The notes under the pieces: generated by a model | Seen by the model: the letters and a program-made list of their open reading frames with translations, nothing else | The model's database searches: none | What the model was told of the DNA's origin: nothing | Shown here: in pieces, positions 2,313 to 12,228 of the stretch | Layout of the letters: each line of letters starts with the position of its first letter | Numbering within the stretch: the stretch's first letter is position 1 | Made by a program: the position numbers and the translations under genes | Origin: Spirochaetaceae bacterium | Lineage (GTDB): Bacteria > Spirochaetota > Spirochaetia > Treponematales > Breznakiellaceae | Assembly (NCBI GenBank): GCA_031276945.1 | Contig: JAISMB010000143.1 | Coordinates: 1 to 12,228 of the forward strand | Direction of reading: 5' to 3' | DNA length: 12,228 nucleotides

Positions 2313-2604
2313 AAGACAGTCTCCCTTGGAATGATGATGAGAAAAACAGATTGCGCTGCATTTCCGTCTGTAAGATTAGTGGTACAGCTGTGCGGTTAAG
2401 CACAGATAGGAGGGGTAGAACAAAGGGCGATGTTCGAGTGAAGTCCAAAAAACTTATTCATAATAATACTCCTCTAACATTATCTTATCGCGATTCCCGT
2501 CTGGAATCGACTTTTCACCTAGTCTAGCATTGTGTTCCTCTCTTAGTCTAGCTAAATCTCACCTCACTCGGACTGGGCAACGATTCCAGCTCGGAGTGAA
2601 AGAT

Positions 2605-3277
2605 TCATGTGGGCTCGGGTGTTGTCCTAGGGGGTTTCGTCAAAAAGAAGGAAGATAAATCTGAGATAGAGAGCGGCGAGAAAGGAATCAGAACGTTTAG
2701 CATACCGAGTAGTACTACCTCTCTGTACTGCTTAAGCCACCGAAATACATGCTCAATGAGATGGCGCTTCTTATACAGCTCTGTGTCATAAGTCCTTACC
2801 ACTTTCCGACTACGCTTGGAAGGAATAACTACCTTACTACCTCCTGCACAGGCTGTGTCTATTACCTGGTTCACGTCATACCCCCTATCGGCAATCAAGA
2901 CTTTTACTGATAACCCTGCCATTAAGGGCGGTGCATAGGCGCAATCCGCCTCCTGCCCCGCTGAAACTATGATACGTACCGACTTTCCCTTCTTAATCTA
3001 TAGCAAGGTGGACTTTCGTATTGAGCCCCCTTGTGTACGCCCTATCCCGCCAGCGGCAAAATCTTCGGTATGTATTTTTCCAGTCGCCGTATTCAGGAGG
3101 TAAATCTCTCCAAGGAACGCCGGGTCTGATAATCCAGGATACAGCATTGATAAAGCGTCGATTGTCATGAGCCATTCGACCCTGTTTACCTGCCGCTTCT
3201 GGAAGTAAGTCTTTTATTTTTTCCCACAGCGTATCATTGATGTCGTGTCTGTGCAGTACTTTTCCGTTTTCTTTCAT
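2605..3277 (-). pseudogene. IS5-family DDE transposase, disrupted. It is split into ORFs 2993-3277 and 2605-2922, with an internal deletion of about 128 bp and a C-terminal frameshift.
   Basis: Relative to copy 2, the segment DVWKTIAAELIGEVDTQWLMIDATYSKVHADG...QAIG is missing. The deletion lies between GATAG microhomologies (junction near 3040-3050). Near 2730-2760 a 2-bp indel shifts the frame after LKQ, so the ORF ends in unrelated residues instead of the RGIA(T)RY... tail. Confidence 0.75.
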
Positions 3278-3322
3278 CTTGTTATCTTACTTTATTTCCT
3301 TCCTTTTGACGACACTCCCTAA
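2627..3322 (-). mobile_element. IS5-family (IS427/IS1031-like) insertion sequence, copy 1, degenerate.
   Basis: Terminal inverted repeats (C)TAGGGGGTTTCGTCAAAAAGAAGGAAGATAA at 2627 and TTAGGGAGTGTCGTCAAAAGGAAGGAAATAA (reverse complement) ending at about 3322. These match the ends of the second copy at 4208-5027. The internal ORFs carry the IS5-type N-terminal RRFINAVSWIIRPGVPWRDLPPEYGDW and C-terminal IADRGYD...YDTELYKKRHLIEHVF..LKQ motifs. Confidence 0.8.
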
Positions 3323-3344
3323 CATATTCCGGTAATAAATTTAT

Positions 3345-4205
3345 GGAGGTGATCCACAAAGAATGATGAACCTCAAATAAAGCCGTAATTGATGTATAAA
3401 GAAAGCAATATCAAAGGCTTTTCAGTGGTTGAACAGCTTTTGGAAAAACAGCAGTTCAGTTCCTCCGAAATGTCCGCCTTACCTGATGCCTCAACCGGTA
3501 ATTATTCCTCTCTATCCCTCCCATATGCTTTTTTCCTATGTTATGGTTGTCCTCCGCGAAAGCTGAAAGAAAACTGTCCCTATCGTCCGTCGCTATCCTG
3601 TCATAGCTTATCCCTATCTGTTTTATCCTCTTTACTTAACTTTTTTGCGGTTTTCAGGTCCACCTTTCCACAGACAAACGCCACAATTTTCTCGCTTCCC
3701 CGCTGATACGCGTATATCAGCCATAGGTTGTTCTCCTTTTTTCCTCTATACGTCCAACACTCGTCTATTTCAAGATGATCGTAGTAACTTCTCTTCGGTT
3801 TTATGTTATGTTTGGTTGATTTCAGTACTTTTAAGACTTTGGTGATACTGATGTCTGGTATGCCCATTCCCCGGACAAGCATGATTTTTACCAGTTCGAC
3901 TACCCGGGAAAGGCATCCCCGATAGGGTTTTTCATGGTCGCTTAAAAACTGACGTCCGCGGTCTTTACACTGGTAATTTTGCTTTCCCTTGCTCTTTTTC
4001 CCGTTTCGAGTTAAGGTGGAACTATGGCAATGGGGGCATTTGAGTTCTAATGTAAGGAAGAGCGTCGCTACTCCTCCTGTTGAGAAGGCTGTTAAACGGG
4101 GAATGGGCTTTGTGGTCCTCAAAATGCCAAAGCACAAAACCCATTGCGACTTTCTTCTTTTTCACTTTACAGCTTCATGGGCTGTACTGAGAAAGCGTCA
4201 CCGCC
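3345..4205 (-). mobile_element. IS1-family-like element with a frameshifted transposase.
   Basis: Putative terminal inverted repeats GGAGGTGATCC (3345-3355) and, in reverse complement, GGCGGTGACGC (4195-4205). These resemble the IS1 GGTGATGC termini. The coding content is IS1 InsA/InsB-like. Confidence 0.55.
3601..4137 (-). pseudogene. IS1-family transposase fragment (InsA-like zinc finger fused to the start of the InsB-like DDE domain). The remainder continues out of frame to about 3400.
   Basis: The 178-aa ORF contains CPHCHSSTLTRNGK...YQCKDRGRQF, a Cys4 zinc finger like IS1 InsA. It also contains IDECWTYRGKKENNLWLIYAYQRGSEKIVAFVCGK, comparable to IS1 InsB [20 protein letters not shown]...VVAHVFGER. 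After its stop at 3601, another minus frame reads ...HNIGKKHMGGIERNNYRLRH, which resembles IS1 InsB ...ISKRYTQRIERHNLNLRQH. The transposase is therefore frameshifted or internally deleted. Confidence 0.65.
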
Positions 4206-4207
4206 AT

Positions 4208-5027
4208 TAGGGAGTGTCGTCAAAAGGAAGGAAATAAAGTAAGATAACAAGATGAAAGAAAATGGAAAAGCATTGCACAGACACGACATCAGTGATAACC
4301 TGTGAGAAAAGATAAAAGACTTACTGCCAGGAGCGGCAGGTAAACAGGGTCAAATGGCTCATGACAATCGACGCTTTATCAATGCAGTATCCTGGATTAT
4401 CAGAACCGGCGTTCCAGACAGAGACTTACCTCCTGAATACGGAGACTGGAAAAATACACACCGAAGATTTTCCCGCTGGCGGGATAGAGATGTCTGGAAA
4501 ACAATAGCCGCTGAACTTATCGGGGAAGTGGATACCCAGTGGCTTATGATAGATGCAACTTATAGTAAAGTCCATGCAGACGGATGTACAGCGGTTGGAG
4601 GAAATCAAGCGATAGGGCGTACACAAGGGGGCTCAATACGAAAGTCCACCTTGCTATAGATAAGAAGGGAAAGCCAGTACGTATCATAGTTTCAGCGGGG
4701 CAGAAGGCGGATTGCGCGTATGCACCGCCCTTAATGGCAGGGTTATAGGTAAAAGTCTTGATTGCTGATAGAGGGTATGACATGAACCAGGTAATAGACA
4801 CAGCCTGTGCAGGAGGTATTAAGGTAGTTATTCCTTCCAAGCGTAGTCGGAAGGTGGTAAGGACTTATGACACAGAGCTGTATAAAAAGCGCCATCTTAT
4901 TGAGAATGTGTTTTGGTGGCTTAAACAGTGGAGAGGTATTGCTATTCGCTACGCTCAACGCTCTGATTCCTTTCTCGCCGCTCTCTATCTCAGATTTATC
5001 TTCCTTCCTTTTGACGACACGCCCTAG
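4208..5027 (+). mobile_element. IS5-family (IS427/IS1031-like) insertion sequence, copy 2, degenerate and inverted relative to copy 1.
   Basis: Left inverted repeat TTAGGGAGTGTCGTCAAAAGGAAGGAAATAAAG begins at about 4208. Right inverted repeat ...TTCCTTCCTTTTGACGACACGCCCTAG ends at about 5027. The two ends match each other with a single mismatch. The copy abuts the IS1-like right end with a 2-bp gap. Confidence 0.8.
4252..5027 (+). pseudogene. IS5-family DDE transposase, inactivated by a premature stop and at least two frameshifts.
   Basis: The ATG at 4252 gives MKENGKALHRHDISDNL and then TGA at 4303-4305, where copy 1 reads TLWEKIKDLL. The homology then continues in three different frames. 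ORF 4354-4659 reads RRFINAVSWII...QAIGRTQGGS. The next frame reads KVHLAIDKKGKPVRIIVSAGQKADCAYAPPLMAGL-stop. ORF 4758-5027 reads IADRGYDMNQV...RHLIENVFWWLKQWRGIAIRYAQRSDSFLAALYLRFI. Confidence 0.8.
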
Positions 5028-5060
5028 TTTAACAGCCCTCTCAACATCTTTAGATAAGAT

Positions 5061-5130
5061 AAGAGAGGGGATAGGTCAGACCTTGCCCCTTCGCCTTAGC
5101 CCGCGATGCAACTCCCCCCATAGGTCAGAC
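5061..5130. repeat. Two degenerate copies of the TAAGTCAGACCTCG repeat core (ATAGGTCAGACCTTGCCCCT at 5061 and ATAGGTCAGACTTCCTG at 5110).
   Basis: Direct inspection shows ATAGGTCAGACC twice, 49 bp apart, immediately outside the IS5 copy 2 end and 70-140 bp from the atpG stop. Confidence 0.6.
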
Positions 5131-5201
5131 TTCCTGATCCGACTAGGATGGGCTTGAGAACTTCGTGCGTTACTGCTTTGTTTCTTGAGAGAGGGAGGCA
5201 T

Positions 5202-6083
5202 TTAAAGCCCCAGAGAACCGCTTATAATTTCAGTCATTTCCTGCGTAATAGTCGCTTGGCGGATGCGATTGTAATAAATCTGCAAGTCTGCAAGCATTTT
5301 TTCAGCATTCTTTGAAGATTCGTTCATTGCTTTCATGCGAGCGCTCTGTTCACTGGCATAAGCCTCGACTAAACAGCCGTAAATCATGCCTTTGAGGTAA
5401 AGCGGCACGAGCGCCTCAAAAACAGTCTCAGCAGAAGGCAGGTATTCAAAGCTCAACGCAGTCCGTTGCTGCCCGCCGCTTTCGATAATTTCAGCCTGTA
5501 TTTTCTGTGCATCAAGCGGCAGCAGGTGGTGGATAGTCGGCACGAGTTTAACGGTACTGTAGAGGTGGGTATACACAATATAAATCTCGTCAAACATGCC
5601 CCAGAGGTACTGCATTATAAGGTAATGGGTGATAAGCTGGGCATCATCAAGAGTCGGCAACTGTGAGTTAAAGGAAAAATTCTCGACTAGAGGGTAGGGG
5701 GCATGGCTAAAATAACGATAAGCGCTGTTCCCCACCGGCAGCAGCACGGGGTTGCGTAGCTGGGCGCAGAGGGTATTGACCGTCTTAAAAATGTTGGCAT
5801 TGTAGCCGCCAGCCATACCTTTGTCGCTGCTTATTATCAATACAGCGCTGTGAAACGCGGTGTTTTTTTCTATCCGTTTAATGAATTCATTGGGTATCAT
5901 GCCGGCACCGACGACAATATCGTATAAAGACTTCTGTATCCGCATGAAAAACGGTTCTGTATCTTCAAGAATACGCCGTGCTTTACGCAATTTTGCCGTA
6001 GAAATAAGGTCCATCGCTTTGGTTACCTGCAATGTTTGTTGTATCGCCCGCATCCTGAGGCGTAGTTCTTGTCCGTTTGCCAT
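5202..6083 (-). CDS. atpG: F-type ATP synthase F1 gamma subunit.
   Basis: The sequence is collinear with bacterial gamma chains. The N-terminus MANGQELRLRMRAIQQTLQVTKAMDLISTAKLRKARR compares with E. coli [34 protein letters not shown]. The C-terminus is ASEQSARMKAMNESSKNAEKMLADLQIYYNRIRQATITQEMTEIISG. The ORF track extends to 6119 by using a TTG start. The ATG at 6081-6083 (MANGQ...) gives a canonical length of 293 aa and is preferred. Confidence 0.9.
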   Translation of the reverse strand: MANGQELRLRMRAIQQTLQVTKAMDLISTAKLRKARRILEDTEPFFMRIQKSLYDIVVGAGMIPNEFIKRIEKNTAFHSAVLIISSDKGMAGGYNANIFKTVNTLCAQLRNPVLLPVGNSAYRYFSHAPYPLVENFSFNSQLPTLDDAQLITHYLIMQYLWGMFDEIYIVYTHLYSTVKLVPTIHHLLPLDAQKIQAEIIESGGQQRTALSFEYLPSAETVFEALVPLYLKGMIYGCLVEAYASEQSARMKAMNESSKNAEKMLADLQIYYNRIRQATITQEMTEIISGSLGL

Positions 6084-6254
6084 GATTTCGGTGGAAAAAG
6101 GAAGGGAGAGGGCGCGCAAAGTTCGCTTCTTCTGTCCTCTTTCCTGCTCCTGTCTTATAAGATTTACTCAAACCGAGAGGGATTTTTAAGTCTCGTGCCT
6201 GCTTCTTCCTGCGCTCGTTTCACGTGCGACATGCGCTCTCATATTCACAGGCTT

Positions 6255-6273
6255 CCCGCCAACGGCGGGTTTT
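6255..6273 (+). terminator. Plus-strand terminator-like GC hairpin plus T-tract (CCCGCCaacGGCGGG-TTTT), lying between two minus-strand genes.
   Basis: A perfect 6-bp GC stem with a 3-nt loop is followed by TTTT on the plus strand only. On the minus strand the same hairpin is followed by AAGCC, with no U tract. Confidence 0.35.
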
Positions 6274-6427
6274 AGTTAAACCGGTTGAACCGACCGTGCG
6301 CCGTTCTCAAGCACGATCCAACGCTGAAGCGGCTCGTTCGTCCGTTGTATGCCCTTGTTGTTCAAAGGCATTGCTTGCCACTGCTGAGAGGGTATCATTA
6401 TTCATTATGAAGTATAATACTCGTTTG

Positions 6428-7918
6428 CTAGGCAGTTTTTTTATACTTTTCTATCGCAGTCTGTAGTTCCGACTCGTTCTCAAGGGAAAGTGCGCCGGTT
6501 TTTTTAATGCTCTCCATAAGCGGCGCATACTGAACATTAAGATAGGCAAGAAATTCACGCAGAAAAGACCGCACTTTTTCTTTTGGCACATCAAGCAGGA
6601 GGTTATTGGTTATCAAAAACAGAATTGCCACTTCTTCTTCAAGAAGGAAAGGAGAAAACTGCGGCTGCTTGAGTGTTTCCATAATACGTTCGCCTTGGGC
6701 GAGCTTTTCTTGCGTAGCCTTATCCAGATCGCTGCCGAATTGGGCGAAAGCCGCCATTTCCCGGTATTGTGCAAGGTCAAGTCTGAGCCGACCTGAAATA
6801 TGCCTTATAGCTTTAGTTTGTGCAGAACCGCCGACCCGGCTGACTGAAAGCCCTACATCAATGGCAGGACGAAAGCCGGCATTGAACAGTTCTGTCTGTA
6901 GAAAGACCTGTCCATCGGTAATTGAAATAACATTAGTAGGAATGTATGAAGAAATATCACCAGCTTGGGTTTCCACAATGGGAAGAGCTGTAATAGAACC
7001 GCCGCTTCTCAGTTTTGCAGCGCGTTCTAAAAGCCGAGAATGGAGGTAAAACACATCACCGGGAAAAGCTTCCCGTCCGGGCGGACGGCGCAGCAAGAGT
7101 GATATGGTACGGTATGCGACCGCATGCTTTGAAAGATCATCGTAGACCACAAGAACATCTTTGTGCTGGTGCATAAAATGTTCAGCCATAGCAACGGCTG
7201 AATACGGCGCTAAGTACTGCAAAGCTGCCGAGTCTGATGCTGCTGCAAGCACCACAAAGGTATAGTCTAAAGCGCCATACTTTTCTAAATTGCGCACGAT
7301 TGCTGCTACTGAAGAAGATTTTTGCCCGATAGCGCAGTAAATACAGATAATATCAGCATCTTTTTGGTTAATGATTGTATCAAGAGCAAGGGAAGTTTTT
7401 CCGGTTTGTCTATCGCCTATGATTAATTCACGCTGTCCACGACCAATGGGAATCATAGCATCAATGGCAATAATTCCGGTTTGTAAGGGCGTATCAACAG
7501 CACCACGCTCAATAACCGGTGCAGCAGGCGACTCAACCGGCAGCATCTCTTCCGGCTCAAGAGCCCCTTTACCATCAACCGGCACACCGAGCGGATTCAC
7601 TACCCGTCCTAATAAGGATTGTCCAGCCGGAACTGAAGCGACTTTTCCGCTACCGCGTACTTCTTCGCCATCTTTTACTAACGAATCACCAGAAAGCAGT
7701 ACACATCCGACCGTTTCTTCGGTTAAGTTCAGCACCATGCCAGTTGCACCGGAGGCAAATTCCACCAGTTCGCCGTATACAGCTTTATTGAGTCCGCGGA
7801 TAATCGCCACAGAATCACCGACTTGTACAACAGATCCCACCGAAAAAGACGGTACTTTAGTTTCCCAGTTTTTCAGTTCTTCTTGTAAGATCGCGGTTAA
7901 ATTGCCAAAATCAAGCAT
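6428..7918 (-). CDS. atpA: F-type ATP synthase F1 alpha subunit.
   Basis: 496-aa ORF with an ATG at 7916-7918 preceded by AGGAAAGGG. It carries the Walker A motif [11 protein letters not shown] and the alpha-signature block [53 protein letters not shown]...[45 protein letters not shown]. Confidence 0.95.
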
Positions 7919-8119: not shown

Positions 8120-10486
8120 CTATCTTTTCCATGAGCCATTCTGCTGCATCTTATAGGTTCCGGATTTTTTACCGTTCGAGTTATACAGCTCAGTCAGATT
8201 ATTGTTAAAGGCAAAAGCGCCCATACTTATATTCTGAGCCGCAAGGTTTACGGTGACGAGCGGGTTACGGTAAAAAGCCCCGGCGCTAATGGTAAGAACA
8301 CTGCGCGGTATGCTGATACTCGTCAGCTTGTTACCAGAAAAAGCATATTCACCAATGGTAGTAATGCTGGGCGGAAGGGTCAGGCTTGTTAAGCTGTTAT
8401 CATAAAACGCATAATTGCCAATGGTAAGAACGCCGTGCGGCAGACTGAGTGTTTTGAGCTGATTGCTGTAAAAGGCATAATCGCCAATTTCACTGACGCT
8501 CTTAGAAAGAGTAAGTGTTGCGATCCTATTCATGGAAAAAGCTTCAGCGCCGATTTTCGTTACCTGATGCGGAATAGTTACCGCGGTCAGTTGATTATCA
8601 TAAAATGCGCAGTCGGCTATGCTTGTCAAACTTTCAGAAAGAACAACCGTGCTTAATTGATTAGAACGAAAGGCGTATGCTCCAAGAGTAGTAACGCTCT
8701 GGGGAATAACGACCATGAACAACCTATTATGAGAAAATGCATCTGCGCCTATGACGGTCAGACCATCAGGCAGCTCAAGCTTGGTTAATCTATTGCCGGA
8801 AAATGCCCCGCTGCCTATAGTCGTAACGTTGTCGGGAATATTAACCATGGTTAAGAGGTTATTATAAAAAGCATAATCGCTAATGGACTCGAGGCTGTTC
8901 GGCAAGCTCAAGCCGGTTAATCTGTTGCCGGAAAAAGCTCCGCTGCCTATAAACTTGAGACTGTGCGGAAGGCTTATGCTGCTTAACAGGTTATCGGCAA
9001 ACGCACGCTCGCCGATAGTGGTAACGCCGCTCGGAATACTGATCGTACTTAACTGATTGCCGGAAAAAGCTCCCGCACCAATGGTCGTAACGCTGCGGGG
9101 AATGGTCAGACCAGTGAGTTTATTTCCGGCAAAAGCATAGTCGCCAATACTTTGCACAGTGTGCGGAATACTCACGGCAATAAGTTGATTATTGGCAAAC
9201 GCATAACTGCCAATACTTTCTACCGTATCAGGAATAACCAGCGCCAAAAGATTATTCAGCCGGAATGCGCCGTTTCCTATCATGTTCAGCGTCTGGGGCA
9301 GATCAATATCCGTCAAATTATTTTCAGCAAACGCATCATCATCAAGGGACTCAAGTCCGGAAAAAAGCTGCACTGCGCTTAATTGATTGTAGGCAAACGC
9401 CTGTTTTCCAATATGCTTAACGCTCGGCGGAATAGTAACGGCGCTCAGATTATTGGCATAGAAGGCGTGGTCTTCTATAGACACGAGCGTTTCAGGCAGA
9501 GTTATGAGTGCAAGCTCGTTGTCATAGAATGCTTCTTTGGCAATAGTGGTAACCGGCAGCGCTTCAATATACGAAGGTATTTTCAGGGACTGCACGAAAT
9601 GCGTAAAGCCGGTAATGCTGACGGTACTGCCGCGCACTTCCCAGCGCAATCCCTCAGGCACAGGCTCAAAAACTGGCACGCCGCTGAGGGTAAACGATAA
9701 GCCTGACATGTTTTCCCATGCGTCCGCAAAAGTTTGGTAATACACAGTCCCGCTTTTATGCTGCCTGCTCTGCGCAAGATTCATAAGCCGTGTATCAAGC
9801 ATAGTCTTTTCCCCAAGCTTCCAAGCGCCTGAAAGCAAGACAAAACCGGTCTGTCCCTGCTCTTCCAAGACCTGTTCAAGGCTCTTGCGGCTGAAGACGC
9901 TAAAGGCGCAGGTATTTGCCAAATCGATAGCCAGCAGGTGCAGTAAGGTTTCTACCTCATGCCGGTTCAAGGTTTCAGAAACGAATTGCGCCGGTATGAG
10001 CGAGAGGGGCGCGGGCGTGCGCGCTGCGGCAGCGGCGCTCACCAGCGCGATTTGCTCCGCCAGAGCGGGCAGGGCTTGCTGCACGTCTTGCGCTCTTGTA
10101 TACGCACAGTAGGCGCCGGCGATTTGCTGCGCCTGTGCGGGCTTGGTCAGCGAGAGAATGAGTAAGCGCTGCCCTGAAAAGGCTGCGGTTGTGCCTGTAA
10201 GGACGTAGTCGGCTTGCAAGTCCCGACTCAGCTTGTCAAGGACAGTCGGAGAATATCCGTGAGGAGTCGGCGTTACGGCGAGCGCCTGCGTCAGCGCCTC
10301 ATGCGGCACGGGCGCAAACACGCGGTTGAGCGCCGGCTCAGTTGCGAGCAGGTCTGCCCCGTTTGGAGCGGCTTCATCAGCAGCGCCCACAAACGGCAGG
10401 ATGAGAAGACGGGGTTTTTCTTGTGCAAAAACCGGTAGTGCGAGGCAGAGCAAGCAGTACAGCATGCAGCGGGTTACGGCTTTCAT
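8120..10486 (-). CDS. Secreted BspA-type leucine-rich-repeat protein, with an N-terminal TolB-N-like/LPF domain and about 20 23-residue LRRs.
   Basis: 788-aa ORF with an ATG at 10484-10486 preceded by AAGGAG. The signal peptide is MKAVTRCMLYCLLCLALPVFA|QE. The N-terminal 300 aa contain KPRLLILPF...LQADYVLTGT, the LPF...DYVLTG signature of TolB-N-like periplasmic modules. About 20 tandem units of the pattern AFxxNxLTx(V/I)xIPxSVxxIGxxAF follow. This is the BspA/TpLRR-type LRR, with N at the position where those families often have C. Confidence 0.85.
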   Translation of the reverse strand: MKAVTRCMLYCLLCLALPVFAQEKPRLLILPFVGAADEAAPNGADLLATEPALNRVFAPVPHEALTQALAVTPTPHGYSPTVLDKLSRDLQADYVLTGTTAAFSGQRLLILSLTKPAQAQQIAGAYCAYTRAQDVQQALPALAEQIALVSAAAAARTPAPLSLIPAQFVSETLNRHEVETLLHLLAIDLANTCAFSVFSRKSLEQVLEEQGQTGFVLLSGAWKLGEKTMLDTRLMNLAQSRQHKSGTVYYQTFADAWENMSGLSFTLSGVPVFEPVPEGLRWEVRGSTVSITGFTHFVQSLKIPSYIEALPVTTIAKEAFYDNELALITLPETLVSIEDHAFYANNLSAVTIPPSVKHIGKQAFAYNQLSAVQLFSGLESLDDDAFAENNLTDIDLPQTLNMIGNGAFRLNNLLALVIPDTVESIGSYAFANNQLIAVSIPHTVQSIGDYAFAGNKLTGLTIPRSVTTIGAGAFSGNQLSTISIPSGVTTIGERAFADNLLSSISLPHSLKFIGSGAFSGNRLTGLSLPNSLESISDYAFYNNLLTMVNIPDNVTTIGSGAFSGNRLTKLELPDGLTVIGADAFSHNRLFMVVIPQSVTTLGAYAFRSNQLSTVVLSESLTSIADCAFYDNQLTAVTIPHQVTKIGAEAFSMNRIATLTLSKSVSEIGDYAFYSNQLKTLSLPHGVLTIGNYAFYDNSLTSLTLPPSITTIGEYAFSGNKLTSISIPRSVLTISAGAFYRNPLVTVNLAAQNISMGAFAFNNNLTELYNSNGKKSGTYKMQQNGSWKR

Positions 10487-10536: not shown

Positions 10537-10549
10537 GGGAAGGCTGGGG

Positions 10550-10835
10550 TAAGTCAGACCTCGGCTTCAGATAAGTCAGACCTCGCCCTCCGGTAAGTCA
10601 GACCTCGTCCCCAGATAAGTCAGACCTCGCCCTCCGGTAAGTCAGACCTCGCCCTCCGGTAAGTCAGACCTCGCCCTCCGGTAAGTCAGACCTCGCCCTC
10701 CGGTAAGTCAGACCTCGCCCTCCGATAAGTCAGACCTCGGCTTCAGATAGGTCAGACCTCGCCCTCCGGTAAGTCAGACCTCGCCCTCCGGTAAGTCAGA
10801 CCTCGCCCTCCGGTAAGTCAGACCTCGGCTCTGCA
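10550..10835. repeat. Tandem array of about 13 copies of the 22-bp unit TAAGTCAGACCTCGCCCTCCGG, with three variant units ending ...CGGCTTCAGA or ...CGTCCCCAGA.
   Basis: Strict 22-bp periodicity is read directly. Units 4-7 and 10-12 are identical, while units 1, 3 and 9 carry variant 3' halves. Each unit contains the interrupted palindrome GTCAGAC (GTCNGAC). Confidence 0.95.
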
Positions 10836-10840
10836 TATCA

Positions 10841-10928
10841 GAAAGATGCGGGAGTCCCGACCGAGAGATGCGGGAGTCTCGGCTGAGAGATGCGGGAGTC
10901 TCGACCGAGAGATGCGGCAGTCTCAGGC
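10841..10928. repeat. Second tandem array: four copies of the 22-bp unit GAGAGATGCGGGAGTCTCGRCC.
   Basis: The sequence reads GAAAGATGCGGGAGTCCCGACC / GAGAGATGCGGGAGTCTCGGCT / GAGAGATGCGGGAGTCTCGACC / GAGAGATGCGGCAGTCTCAGGC. The core contains the interrupted palindrome GAGTCTC. The array ends 14 bp from the SPFH gene stop. Confidence 0.9.
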
Positions 10929-10941
10929 GCACGGTCAAGCC

Positions 10942-11994
10942 TTATTCTTTCTTGTGCAGTTCCGCCAGAGCTTGCAGCCCAAAGATAGAACCGTCTTTGA
11001 GTTCTTCGGTGATTTCATTCGGCACGAGCATCATGGAATTGCCCGCCTTTAAGCCTTCGTTCAGAATGGAGAGCGTTTTTAATTTCAGCGCATTCATATC
11101 GTGCGCATACACCGCAGCAGCATCCGCCAGCCGATTGGCAATATCAATCTCAGCCTCGGCAAGCAGGATACGGCTCTTCTTTTCCCGTTCAGCCTGCGCA
11201 AGACGCGCAAGAGAATCCTGCAATCCCTCAGGAATCTGAATGTCGGTAATTTCAATATGCTGGATGGTAATGCCCCATTCGGTTGTCTTCTCGTCAACCG
11301 TGGCTTGCAGTTTCCGTTCAATAACCCGACTGTCGCGCAAAAACGTGGTCAGGTCAGTGCTGGAAACCGCATTGCGCAGCGCGGTCTTCGATGATAAAAT
11401 CACCGCCTGCTCATAGTTTTCAACTTCCAAAGCGGCTTTCTCCGCATCCCAGACAAGCCAAAAACAGAGCGCGTCAACCTGCATCGTAACCGAATCAAGA
11501 CTCAGCGTTTCCTGTGTGGAAAAATCAGAGACCCGTATGCGCATATCAATCCGCTGGGCAATACGATCCAGCAGCGGGATCAGGAAGAAAACCCCCGGAC
11601 CACGCACCCGATAGAAACGACCGAGCCGCAGCACCACCGCCCGCTCCCATTCATCACATTTTTGCAGCACCGGCGCCACAAAAACCACGATACCGGCACA
11701 GAGGGCGCTCAACGTATAATACGGAAAGCCCAAAACCGCGCCGGTAATAACGGCAAGAAAAAAAATCTTAACCGCATCCACCCACCGCGGGAAGAGCAGC
11801 ATACCGATAAGCGCGCTCACCGGAATACCGGCAAGCACGCCCCATTCTCCGAGCGTCGGCGTATCGCCGCGGCTTATGCGCAGCGCCAGCACGACCATAA
11901 GACTGAGCGCAACCATGCCGATACCGGTTGTATTTAATACCCAGTCCGACCTTTTGCTAGCCCGCGGCTTATTTTTTATCAGCATATCCTTCAT
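10942..11994 (-). CDS. SPFH/band-7 (stomatin/HflKC-like) membrane protein with a three-TM N-terminal extension.
   Basis: 350-aa ORF with an ATG at 11992-11994 preceded by GAGGAGG. There are three hydrophobic helices in the first 120 aa. An SPFH core follows (RAVVLRLGRFYRVRGPGVFFLIPLLDRI...VTMQVDALCFWLVWDAEKAALEV). The C-terminal coiled-coil, rich in Ala and Glu (LARLAQAEREKKSRILLAEAEIDIANRLADAA), is typical of the family. Confidence 0.8.
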   Translation of the reverse strand: MKDMLIKNKPRASKRSDWVLNTTGIGMVALSLMVVLALRISRGDTPTLGEWGVLAGIPVSALIGMLLFPRWVDAVKIFFLAVITGAVLGFPYYTLSALCAGIVVFVAPVLQKCDEWERAVVLRLGRFYRVRGPGVFFLIPLLDRIAQRIDMRIRVSDFSTQETLSLDSVTMQVDALCFWLVWDAEKAALEVENYEQAVILSSKTALRNAVSSTDLTTFLRDSRVIERKLQATVDEKTTEWGITIQHIEITDIQIPEGLQDSLARLAQAEREKKSRILLAEAEIDIANRLADAAAVYAHDMNALKLKTLSILNEGLKAGNSMMLVPNEITEELKDGSIFGLQALAELHKKE

Positions 11995-12228
11995 AAATCC
12001 TCCTCATTGCAGCGGATAATCATGCAGCGGCTCAAAGACTTTCGCGCGTTTCACGCCCCTTTCTCCGAGCGTCGGCGTCCCGCCGCGGCTGATACGCAGC
12101 GCCAGCACGACCATAAGACTGAGCGCAACCATGCCGCTGCCGCTTGTATTTAATACCCAGTCCGACCTTTTGCTAGCCCGCGGCTTATTTTTTATCAGCA
12201 TATCCTTCATAAATCCTCCTCATTGCAG
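11845..12228. repeat. Direct tandem duplication with a 216-bp period that spans the SPFH gene's RBS, start codon and first 50 codons. Copy 1 is 11845-12012, a 48-bp spacer follows, and copy 2 is 12061-12228 at the window edge.
   Basis: The 168-bp blocks are about 93% identical. Both end with the same 72 nt: CCAGTCCGACCTTTTGCTAGCCCGCGGCTTATTTTTTATCAGCATATCCTTCATAAATCCTCCTCATTGCAG. The upstream copy yields ORF 12004-12210. Confidence 0.9.
12004..12210 (-). pseudogene. Truncated duplicate of the SPFH-protein N-terminus (68 aa). It is in frame with the downstream full-length gene and separated from it by TGA plus three codons.
   Basis: MKDMLIKNKPRASKRSDWVLNTSGSGMVALSLMVVLALRISRGGTPTLGERGV... compares with the full gene's MKDMLIKNKPRASKRSDWVLNTTGIGMVALSLMVVLALRISRGDTPTLGEWGV.... 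It has its own GAGGAGG RBS copy. The stop is TGA at 12004-12006, followed by GGA GGA TTT ATG. Confidence 0.6.

Follow-up and report, generated by a model that had tools for sequence, protein, structure and literature searches.

The IS427 group of the IS5 family, as described for IS1248, ISPpa2 and ISPaes1 of Paracoccus, consists of insertion sequences (ISs) of 832-865 bp with mostly 2-bp direct repeats, which carry two overlapping open reading frames (ORFs) and a conserved frameshift motif, a natural single-ORF mutant being ISPha1 (Dziewit et al. 2012, PMC3281130). In the single-ORF subgroup of the IS1 family, known among others from plasmids of Acinetobacter and Moraxella and from metagenome-assembled genomes (MAGs) of Treponema, an N-terminal zinc ribbon of the InsA type and an IS1 DDE domain are encoded in one frame, within elements of ~0.78-0.80 kb whose terminal repeats begin with GGnGGTGATC. 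Relatives of both kinds were found here in a contig of a Spirochaetaceae bacterium (GenBank:GCA_031276945.1, contig JAISMB010000143.1); the window analysed is the entire 12,228-bp contig of this MAG, which stems from a short-read metagenome assembly. All large genes of the window are on the minus strand, and the 2.7-kb gap between atpG and a gene for a methyl-accepting chemotaxis protein (MCP) holds three ISs. An earlier note, made by inspection of the sequence, had described them as inactivated elements, two IS5-like copies around an IS1-like one, had read them as nested insertions and had proposed that rearrangement at this place explains why atpD and atpC do not follow atpG. Our analysis bears out the three inactivated elements and their families, as seen below with Pfam and NCBIfam; very probably, the cluster consists of three dead ISs of known families lying side by side, which were not the cause of the split in the atp operon.

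The two IS5-family copies, both of the IS427-group type, were delimited by their terminal repeats. Copy 1 (2628-3321, minus strand) is 694 bp long and copy 2 (4208-5026, plus strand) has the full length of 819 bp, in each case including the flanking TA dinucleotides. A repeat search located the 26-bp terminal inverted repeats (TAGGGAGTGTCGTCAAAAGGAAGGAA / TTCCTTCCTTTTGACGACACGCCCTA) at 2628-2653 and 3296-3321 in copy 1 and at 4208-4233 and 5001-5026 in copy 2, with 23/26 and 25/26 matching positions, respectively, in agreement with the matching termini noticed before. Raw ORF fragments of both copies gave Pfam matches to DUF4096 and DDE_Tnp_1, and the translation of copy 2, after repair of its two stops and of a -1 site, scored 251.5 bits against NCBIfam NF033580 (IS5 family; cut-off 110). 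An inverted-repeat search paired 2617-3322 with 4207-5037 through four collinear blocks, the arms of 281, 275, 107 and 62 nt being 87-93% complementary; inverted repeats this long and this identical cannot have arisen by chance. The copies are thus collinear and inverted, as had been stated, and share 92.9% identity over the aligned columns; the previous estimate of ~90% was too low.

A scan of the genome collection with a 20-nt terminal-repeat query returned 14 loci, 10 of which came from one Treponema sp. MAG, Im510_bin3. Twelve Treponema MAG loci matched the window, in the IS only, with 80-92% identity, unnamed copies in a Treponema MAG being the closest DNA relatives (91-92%), and the closest annotated relatives by protein shared 57% identity (Candidatus Bandiella); a megablast search of 2400-5300 against plasmids gave zero matches. 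Every family copy examined, comprising those of the window and ~25 copy ends of the Treponema MAG, had junctions of the form Y-TA/GG...CC/TA-R (slashes mark the junctions). These uniform TA flanks suggest insertion at a TA inside a YTAR target. The terminal repeats themselves recurred at more than 20 copy ends of a Treponema MAG. TA was present at both ends of both window copies; being universal, it is indistinguishable, as a duplication, from a fixed terminal dinucleotide. A likeness between the outer flanks (GGGTGTTGTCC / GGCTGTTAAAC) was considered as a longer terminus or a target preference and was rejected, as the ~25 copy ends of the Treponema MAG share only Y-TA. The IS5-family type found here is ~815 bp long, has 24-26-bp terminal repeats and would duplicate TA within a YTAR target. 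It resembles the IS427 group in 1) its size of ~0.82 kb (0.8-1.0 kb in the group, 832-865 bp in Paracoccus), terminal inverted repeats and 2-bp TA flanks (target duplications being 2-4 bp in the group), 2) overlapping ORFs for DUF4096 and then DDE, with a -1 frameshift at an A-run/G motif, and 3) the occurrence of single-ORF point mutants, i.e. ISPha1 in Paracoccus and one copy (L012) in the Treponema MAG. It differs from the Paracoccus elements in having terminal repeats of 24-26 bp instead of 13-21 bp, and the window copies differ from IS427 elements in being dead and in the A>C substitution that both have within the slippery motif.

In every copy aligned, including those of the window, the reading frame changes at one and the same motif. 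In copy 2 this -1 frameshift site lies at 4621-4632 on the plus strand, where the window has ACACAAGGGGGC and the family consensus has ACAAAAGGGGGC; an identical A>C change is present in copy 1 (3025-3036), such that both window copies read ACAAGGGGG for AAAAGGGGG, a motif that relatives from Treponema, Candidatus Bandiella and Bacillus cereus otherwise have without any nucleotide difference. Both frames are open in the intact copy L005 of the Treponema MAG (4567-5386 of that locus), in which ORF A ends soon after ...AIGRTKGG and ORF B, LNTKVHLAID..., is in the -1 frame. In L012 (4823-5461, Treponema MAG), one extra base at the site (AAAAGGAGGGTT) fuses ORFs A and B in the predicted register, giving TKGGLNTK. 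When the family consensus was compared with plasmids by tblastn, the best hits were all two-piece matches, and six annotated "IS5 family transposase" coding sequences (CDSs) on plasmids had lengths that left a remainder of 2 on division by 3. These six, from Candidatus Bandiella, Cardinium, Simkania, Bacillus cereus, Komagataeibacter and Paraburkholderia, represent four phyla (Alpha- and Betaproteobacteria, Bacteroidota, Chlamydiota and Bacillota), and their lengths would fit CDSs annotated across a -1 shift. The motif ACAAAAGGGGGCT is nucleotide-identical in Bandiella and B. cereus, and its counterparts are AAAAAGGGGGC in Komagataeibacter, AAAAAAAG in Paraburkholderia and ACACAAGGGGGCT in the window. 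Since the frame change is conserved in all copies, in the intact L005 and in the annotated relatives, and conforms to the description of the IS427 group (PMC3281130), it is native and not a lesion. Comparison of these relatives suggests that slippage takes place on the A-run, and the A>C change shared by the window copies may accordingly have impaired or abolished frameshifting. For IS427-group elements in general, one frame change is native and should not be scored as a lesion, be it in automated calls or in those made by eye.

Lesions of the two copies were called by comparison with the consensus of ten family copies. In copy 1 (minus strand), alignment revealed a 128-nt deletion whose junction is the single remaining GATAG (CTATC) of two direct repeats, at 3042-3046; the deletion takes out the stretch coding for LMIDAT, which includes the first Asp of the DDE motif. 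Two insertions follow in its ORF B, namely a +1 at 2996 (GATTAAG for the family GA-TAAG) and, as seen upon alignment with 8 other copies, a +2 at 2726-2727 near the C-terminus. The 128-bp deletion at GATAG had been described exactly, together with one C-terminal frameshift where we count two frameshifting insertions. In copy 2 (plus strand), the TGA at codon 18 of ORF A (TGG>TGA, 4303-4305) was also as reported; however, the two or more frameshifts ascribed to this copy were not found, as it has no indel relative to the ten-copy consensus and its sole frame change is the native one. Its second lesion is a nonsense change (TCG>TAG) at codon 166, in ORF B (4746-4748). Intact coding capacity has been lost in both copies, each of which was independently inactivated.

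The identity of ~90% between the copies had been taken as a measure of decay in place. According to that proposal, an old IS5 pair decayed where it stood to ~90% identity, and repeated IS-mediated inversion or deletion removed atpD and atpC downstream of atpG. The inverted geometry on which the proposal draws is real. However, the ratio of nonsynonymous to synonymous substitutions (dN/dS) between copy 1 and copy 2 was 0.30 (Nei-Gojobori; dS 0.18, dN 0.05), and the differences at codon positions 1, 2 and 3 numbered 11, 12 and 25, respectively (25/48 in third positions), by which neutrality was rejected (binomial test, P = 2.6e-4). Against the family consensus, dN/dS was 0.30-0.42 for each copy. 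Moreover, the identity between the copies is barely above the 91-92% that they share with the Treponema MAG copies. A dN/dS of 0.30, together with a similar distance to copies of another genome, suggests that most of the divergence predates insertion and arose under selection, while the transposase worked and before the copies died. This in turn argues for separate insertions and not for an old duplicate decaying in place, and the 7% difference does not date any local decay; with neutrality rejected at P ~3e-4, the use of identity as a clock is not sustained. The two copies are best read as separate insertions of diverged family members, each of which would have acquired a few lesions later. 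More generally, percent identity between IS copies gives no date for their decay.

The middle element (3345-4122, minus strand, ~778 bp) is a heavily decayed member of the IS1 family, as identified with NCBIfam and by end-to-end alignment with the intact relatives L019 and L020. Its raw 178-aa ORF contains Zn_ribbon_InsA and DDE_Tnp_IS1 (Pfam), and its frame-repaired translation scored 158.8 bits against NF033558 (IS1 family; cut-off 100). Its nearest intact relatives, found in Treponema and in termite-gut metagenomes and sharing 62-65% identity, are transposases of 233 aa encoded by a single ORF, and the element is therefore placed in the single-ORF subgroup. Unlike the classical IS1 of E. 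coli, with its -1 frameshift at an A6C-type motif for InsAB', these relatives are without an InsA/InsB' frameshift; each frame change of the window copy is a lesion.

The right terminal inverted repeat (3345-3370) is well preserved, reads GGAGGTGATCCACAAAGAATGATGAA on the plus strand and matches both repeats of L020, an intact copy of 797 bp with near-perfect 26-27-bp repeats, GGAGGTGATC(T/C)ACAAAGTATGATGAAT. IS1-family elements have ends of the form GGnnnTG, which the start GGnGGTGATC fits. The right terminus reported before, GGAGGTGATCC, was thus real, except that it starts at 3345 and not at 3346. The left repeat is degenerate, with a 3-nt deletion and substitutions; it was assigned to 4108-4122, the best local match to both the right repeat and the left repeat of L020, and its distance to the coding start, ~62 nt compared with 67 nt in L020, is consistent with this position. 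By contrast, the left terminus proposed in the earlier note (GGCGGTGACGC, 4195-4205) agrees with the right terminus in no more than 8/11 positions, a quality of match that the window offers 31 times by chance; when aligned with intact relatives, the element lies 85 bp from copy 2, not 2 bp. The intervening 84 bp (4123-4206) were also considered as a second IS1-end remnant, and showed no significant similarity in either orientation (P 0.1-0.6).

The IS1 ORF, on the minus strand, has several lesions: the start codon, ATG in the relatives, has been lost at ~4060-4065, 18 nt have been deleted in frame from the helix-turn-helix region near 3850, and a TGG>TGA change is found at 3422-3424. Four frameshifting indels, in line with the frameshifted state noticed previously, consist of a +1 at 3634, a +5 tandem duplication of AACTG at 3452-3456, a -1 near 3440 and a +1 at 3397. 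Set against the single-ORF relatives, the element thus lacks a start codon, one of the repeats and 18 nt, with the frame lost at four places. By its lesion count it looks older than the IS5 copies. No recognisable direct repeat is shared by its flanks, AATAAATTTAT and AATGCCAAAG; the absence of a target duplication, ~8-9 bp in the IS1 family, is expected of an old, eroded copy.

The three elements lie side by side and none interrupts another, which contradicts the nested insertions proposed earlier. A spacer of 23 bp (3322-3344) separates copy 1 from the IS1 right end, and one of 85 bp (4123-4207) separates the IS1 left end from copy 2; no similarity of 3322-3344 to any fetched sequence was found. 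Rfam scanning of the window and a promoter/terminator scan of the region revealed nothing exceeding background.

This arrangement, with inverted IS copies whose right ends face outward around an 886-bp segment, has the geometry of Tn5 and Tn10, and the stretch 2628-5026 might be a present or past composite transposon, or a segment that inverts and thereby influences expression of the MCP gene, toward which copy 1 reads and from which the unit lies ~300 bp upstream. TA is found at both outer junctions, as would befit such a unit; however, it flanks every family copy and is therefore uninformative. The cargo would consist of a dead IS1 and 108 bp of spacer, with no passenger gene, both IS5 copies are now inactive, the segment was, according to the scan, not enriched in promoter-like sites, and a second instance of the block was not found among the loci fetched from the genome collection. 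A composite transposon or a switch of this kind, present or past, is highly improbable. The same low probability applies to the proposal that the inverted copies work, or worked until recently, together with the enclosed segment as one unit, either a composite transposon or a recombination-driven invertible segment, and that a 20-mer is its footprint. This 20-mer (5027-5046, plus strand) abuts the right end of copy 2 and is a 19/20 reverse complement of 4078-4097 in the IS1 leader, a match beyond chance in the window (E 4e-4). Scanning of a metagenome collection that does not include the window's contig with it (GTTTAACAGCCYTCTCAACA) gave only 8 unrelated chance hits, with neither empty sites nor sister IS1 copies.

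A misjoin across IS repeats during metagenome assembly would provide another explanation, by which atpG and the MCP gene are not true neighbours. The window is an entire MAG contig with tandem repeats at both ends, IS copies are classic points of misassembly, and no relative was found with the same flanks on both sides. On the other hand, the IS5 copies are 7% different and have distinct indels, such that they would not collapse in assembly, and the junctions cross unique spacers of 23 bp and 85 bp. In addition, a distinctive 21/22-nt unit, TAAGTCAGACCTCGCCC, is found to the left (1-118) as well as to the right (5070-5088 and 10548-10827) of the cluster, which suggests one genome. We consider an artefact of this type very unlikely.

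Whether the cluster has anything to do with the atp split was addressed by synteny. In Hollandina sp. SP2 (L018), the genes are arranged as atpBEFHAGDC and are followed by MCP genes, and in L032 atpD comes directly after atpG. In the window, atpA (6428-7918, minus strand) and atpG (minus strand; 5202-6083 as annotated, 293 aa, or 5202-6119 in a longer version of 305 aa) stand alone, with a gene for a BspA-type leucine-rich-repeat (LRR) protein upstream in place of atpBEFH and no atpDC downstream. The atpG clade of the window comprises L015 (83% aa identity) and L016 (72%), in both of which non-coding DNA or repeats, instead of atpD, come after atpG; atpBEFH is kept upstream in L016 and is absent from L015 and the window. 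The alignment of the window with L015 ends exactly at the atpG stop codon, and the two have in common a conserved, promoter-like stretch (...TTTCTGGTATAGT...) upstream of atpA. No remnants of atpD or atpC were detected by tblastn in the window or downstream of atpG in L015 and L016, and the IS elements had no nucleotide similarity to L015 and L016.

These comparisons bear on the remaining part of the rearrangement proposal, which has in its favour that atpD and atpC are absent from the window and that more distant relatives (L018, L032) retain atpBEFHAGDC with MCP genes after it. However, the whole atpG clade (window, L015 and L016) is uniformly without atpD after atpG, and L015 and L016 are without similarity to these ISs. 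Furthermore, dS between the window and L016 exceeds 2, which makes the operon split far older than IS copies with 2-3 lesions each. Between the window and L015, dN/dS was 0.08 for atpA and 0.10 for atpG, at dS of 0.7-0.9; ratios of about 0.07-0.10 denote strong purifying selection, by which both genes are functional; genes for the missing subunits are presumably located elsewhere. The window MCP was also considered as an orthologue of the one beside atpC in Hollandina; with 27% identity only, it is probably a paralogue. Since the split is common to relatives without these ISs, the cluster is not its cause, and the atp part of the proposal is already largely refuted; taken as a whole, decay in place with IS-driven loss of atpD and atpC is unlikely, though somewhat less so than a composite unit or a misassembly. 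Reconstructions of energy metabolism in uncultured, probably termite-gut spirochetes may find it mildly useful that atpA and atpG of this clade stand apart from atpD and atpC and are nonetheless under strong purifying selection. It was also noticed that the spacer between atpA and atpG (6104-6436) is ~333 nt in the window, compared with ~61 nt in L015 and 7-12 nt in L016 and L018, leaving ~270 nt of unexplained extra sequence within the two-gene atp unit.

Our preferred reading is that three ISs landed side by side in non-essential DNA between atpG and the MCP gene and were later inactivated. Two members of a single IS5-family lineage (IS427-group type), by then diverged from each other, would have inserted separately and in inverted orientation, with an older-looking single-ORF IS1 element between them, which bears far more lesions and is eroded at one end. 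All three would now be unable to encode a transposase, and the cluster would be inert debris. At most, the 93%-identical inverted copies could serve as a substrate for homologous recombination, which would merely flip the dead IS1, and the split of the atp operon would be older than, and not caused by, the cluster.

Several points weigh against this interpretation. The 20-mer hints at an extra rearrangement, and no simple insertion or inversion scenario fits it. With TA at all four IS5 junctions, target duplications cannot separate independent insertions from movement as a unit or a past inversion. If the A>C change abolishes frameshifting, the common ancestor of the two copies was already defective, which is awkward beside the signal of purifying selection. 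The contig comes from a metagenome assembly and is without read-level support, and a single contig from the source genome is not enough to give the order of insertion or to look for intact master copies.

Several different ISs have thus accumulated and decayed in one non-essential intergenic region, as in the IS-rich intergenic "graveyards" of other bacteria, in comparison with which the present cluster is not distinctive. Clusters like this are a typical feature of bacteria that are host-associated or symbiotic. The closest relatives of atpG and of the ISs come from Treponema, Hollandina, Breznakiellaceae and termite-gut metagenomes, and the source is most likely a termite-gut spirochete. Only unnamed, degenerate members of two known groups, IS5/IS427 and single-ORF IS1, are new here. 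In annotation, three IS pseudogene remnants (two of the IS5/IS427 group and one single-ORF IS1) should take the place of the small hypothetical ORFs, one of which is currently named "predicted RNA-binding Zn-ribbon protein" (P0122); beyond annotation, the significance is little.

Apart from the atp genes, the window encodes, all on the minus strand, a dCache-HAMP MCP (111-2312), the BspA-type LRR protein (8120-10486) and a Band-7 (SPFH) protein (10942-11994). Tandem repeats are frequent. A 21/22-nt unit, TTAAGTCAGACCTCGCCCCCC, is repeated 5.6 times at the contig start (1-118), a near-identical 22-mer is repeated 12.7 times between the LRR and Band-7 genes (10548-10827) and is followed by 3.7 copies of a different 22-mer (10844-10924), and single 21/22-nt units occur at 5070-5088 and 5120-5133, just downstream of atpG. 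No match to these arrays was found in Rfam. An analogous 21/22-nt array of other sequence lies downstream of atpG in L016 (5300-5449). At the contig end, a 216-nt unit is repeated 1.8 times with 95% identity (11836-12228), overlapping the 5' part of the Band-7/SPFH gene and a 68-aa ORF (12004-12210). This may be a genuine tandem duplication or else the repeat where the assembly came to a stop. The BspA-type LRR protein has 788 aa and matches Pfam LRR_5 with 396 bits, and its gene has a strong DNA periodicity of 66 nt, corresponding to 22 aa.

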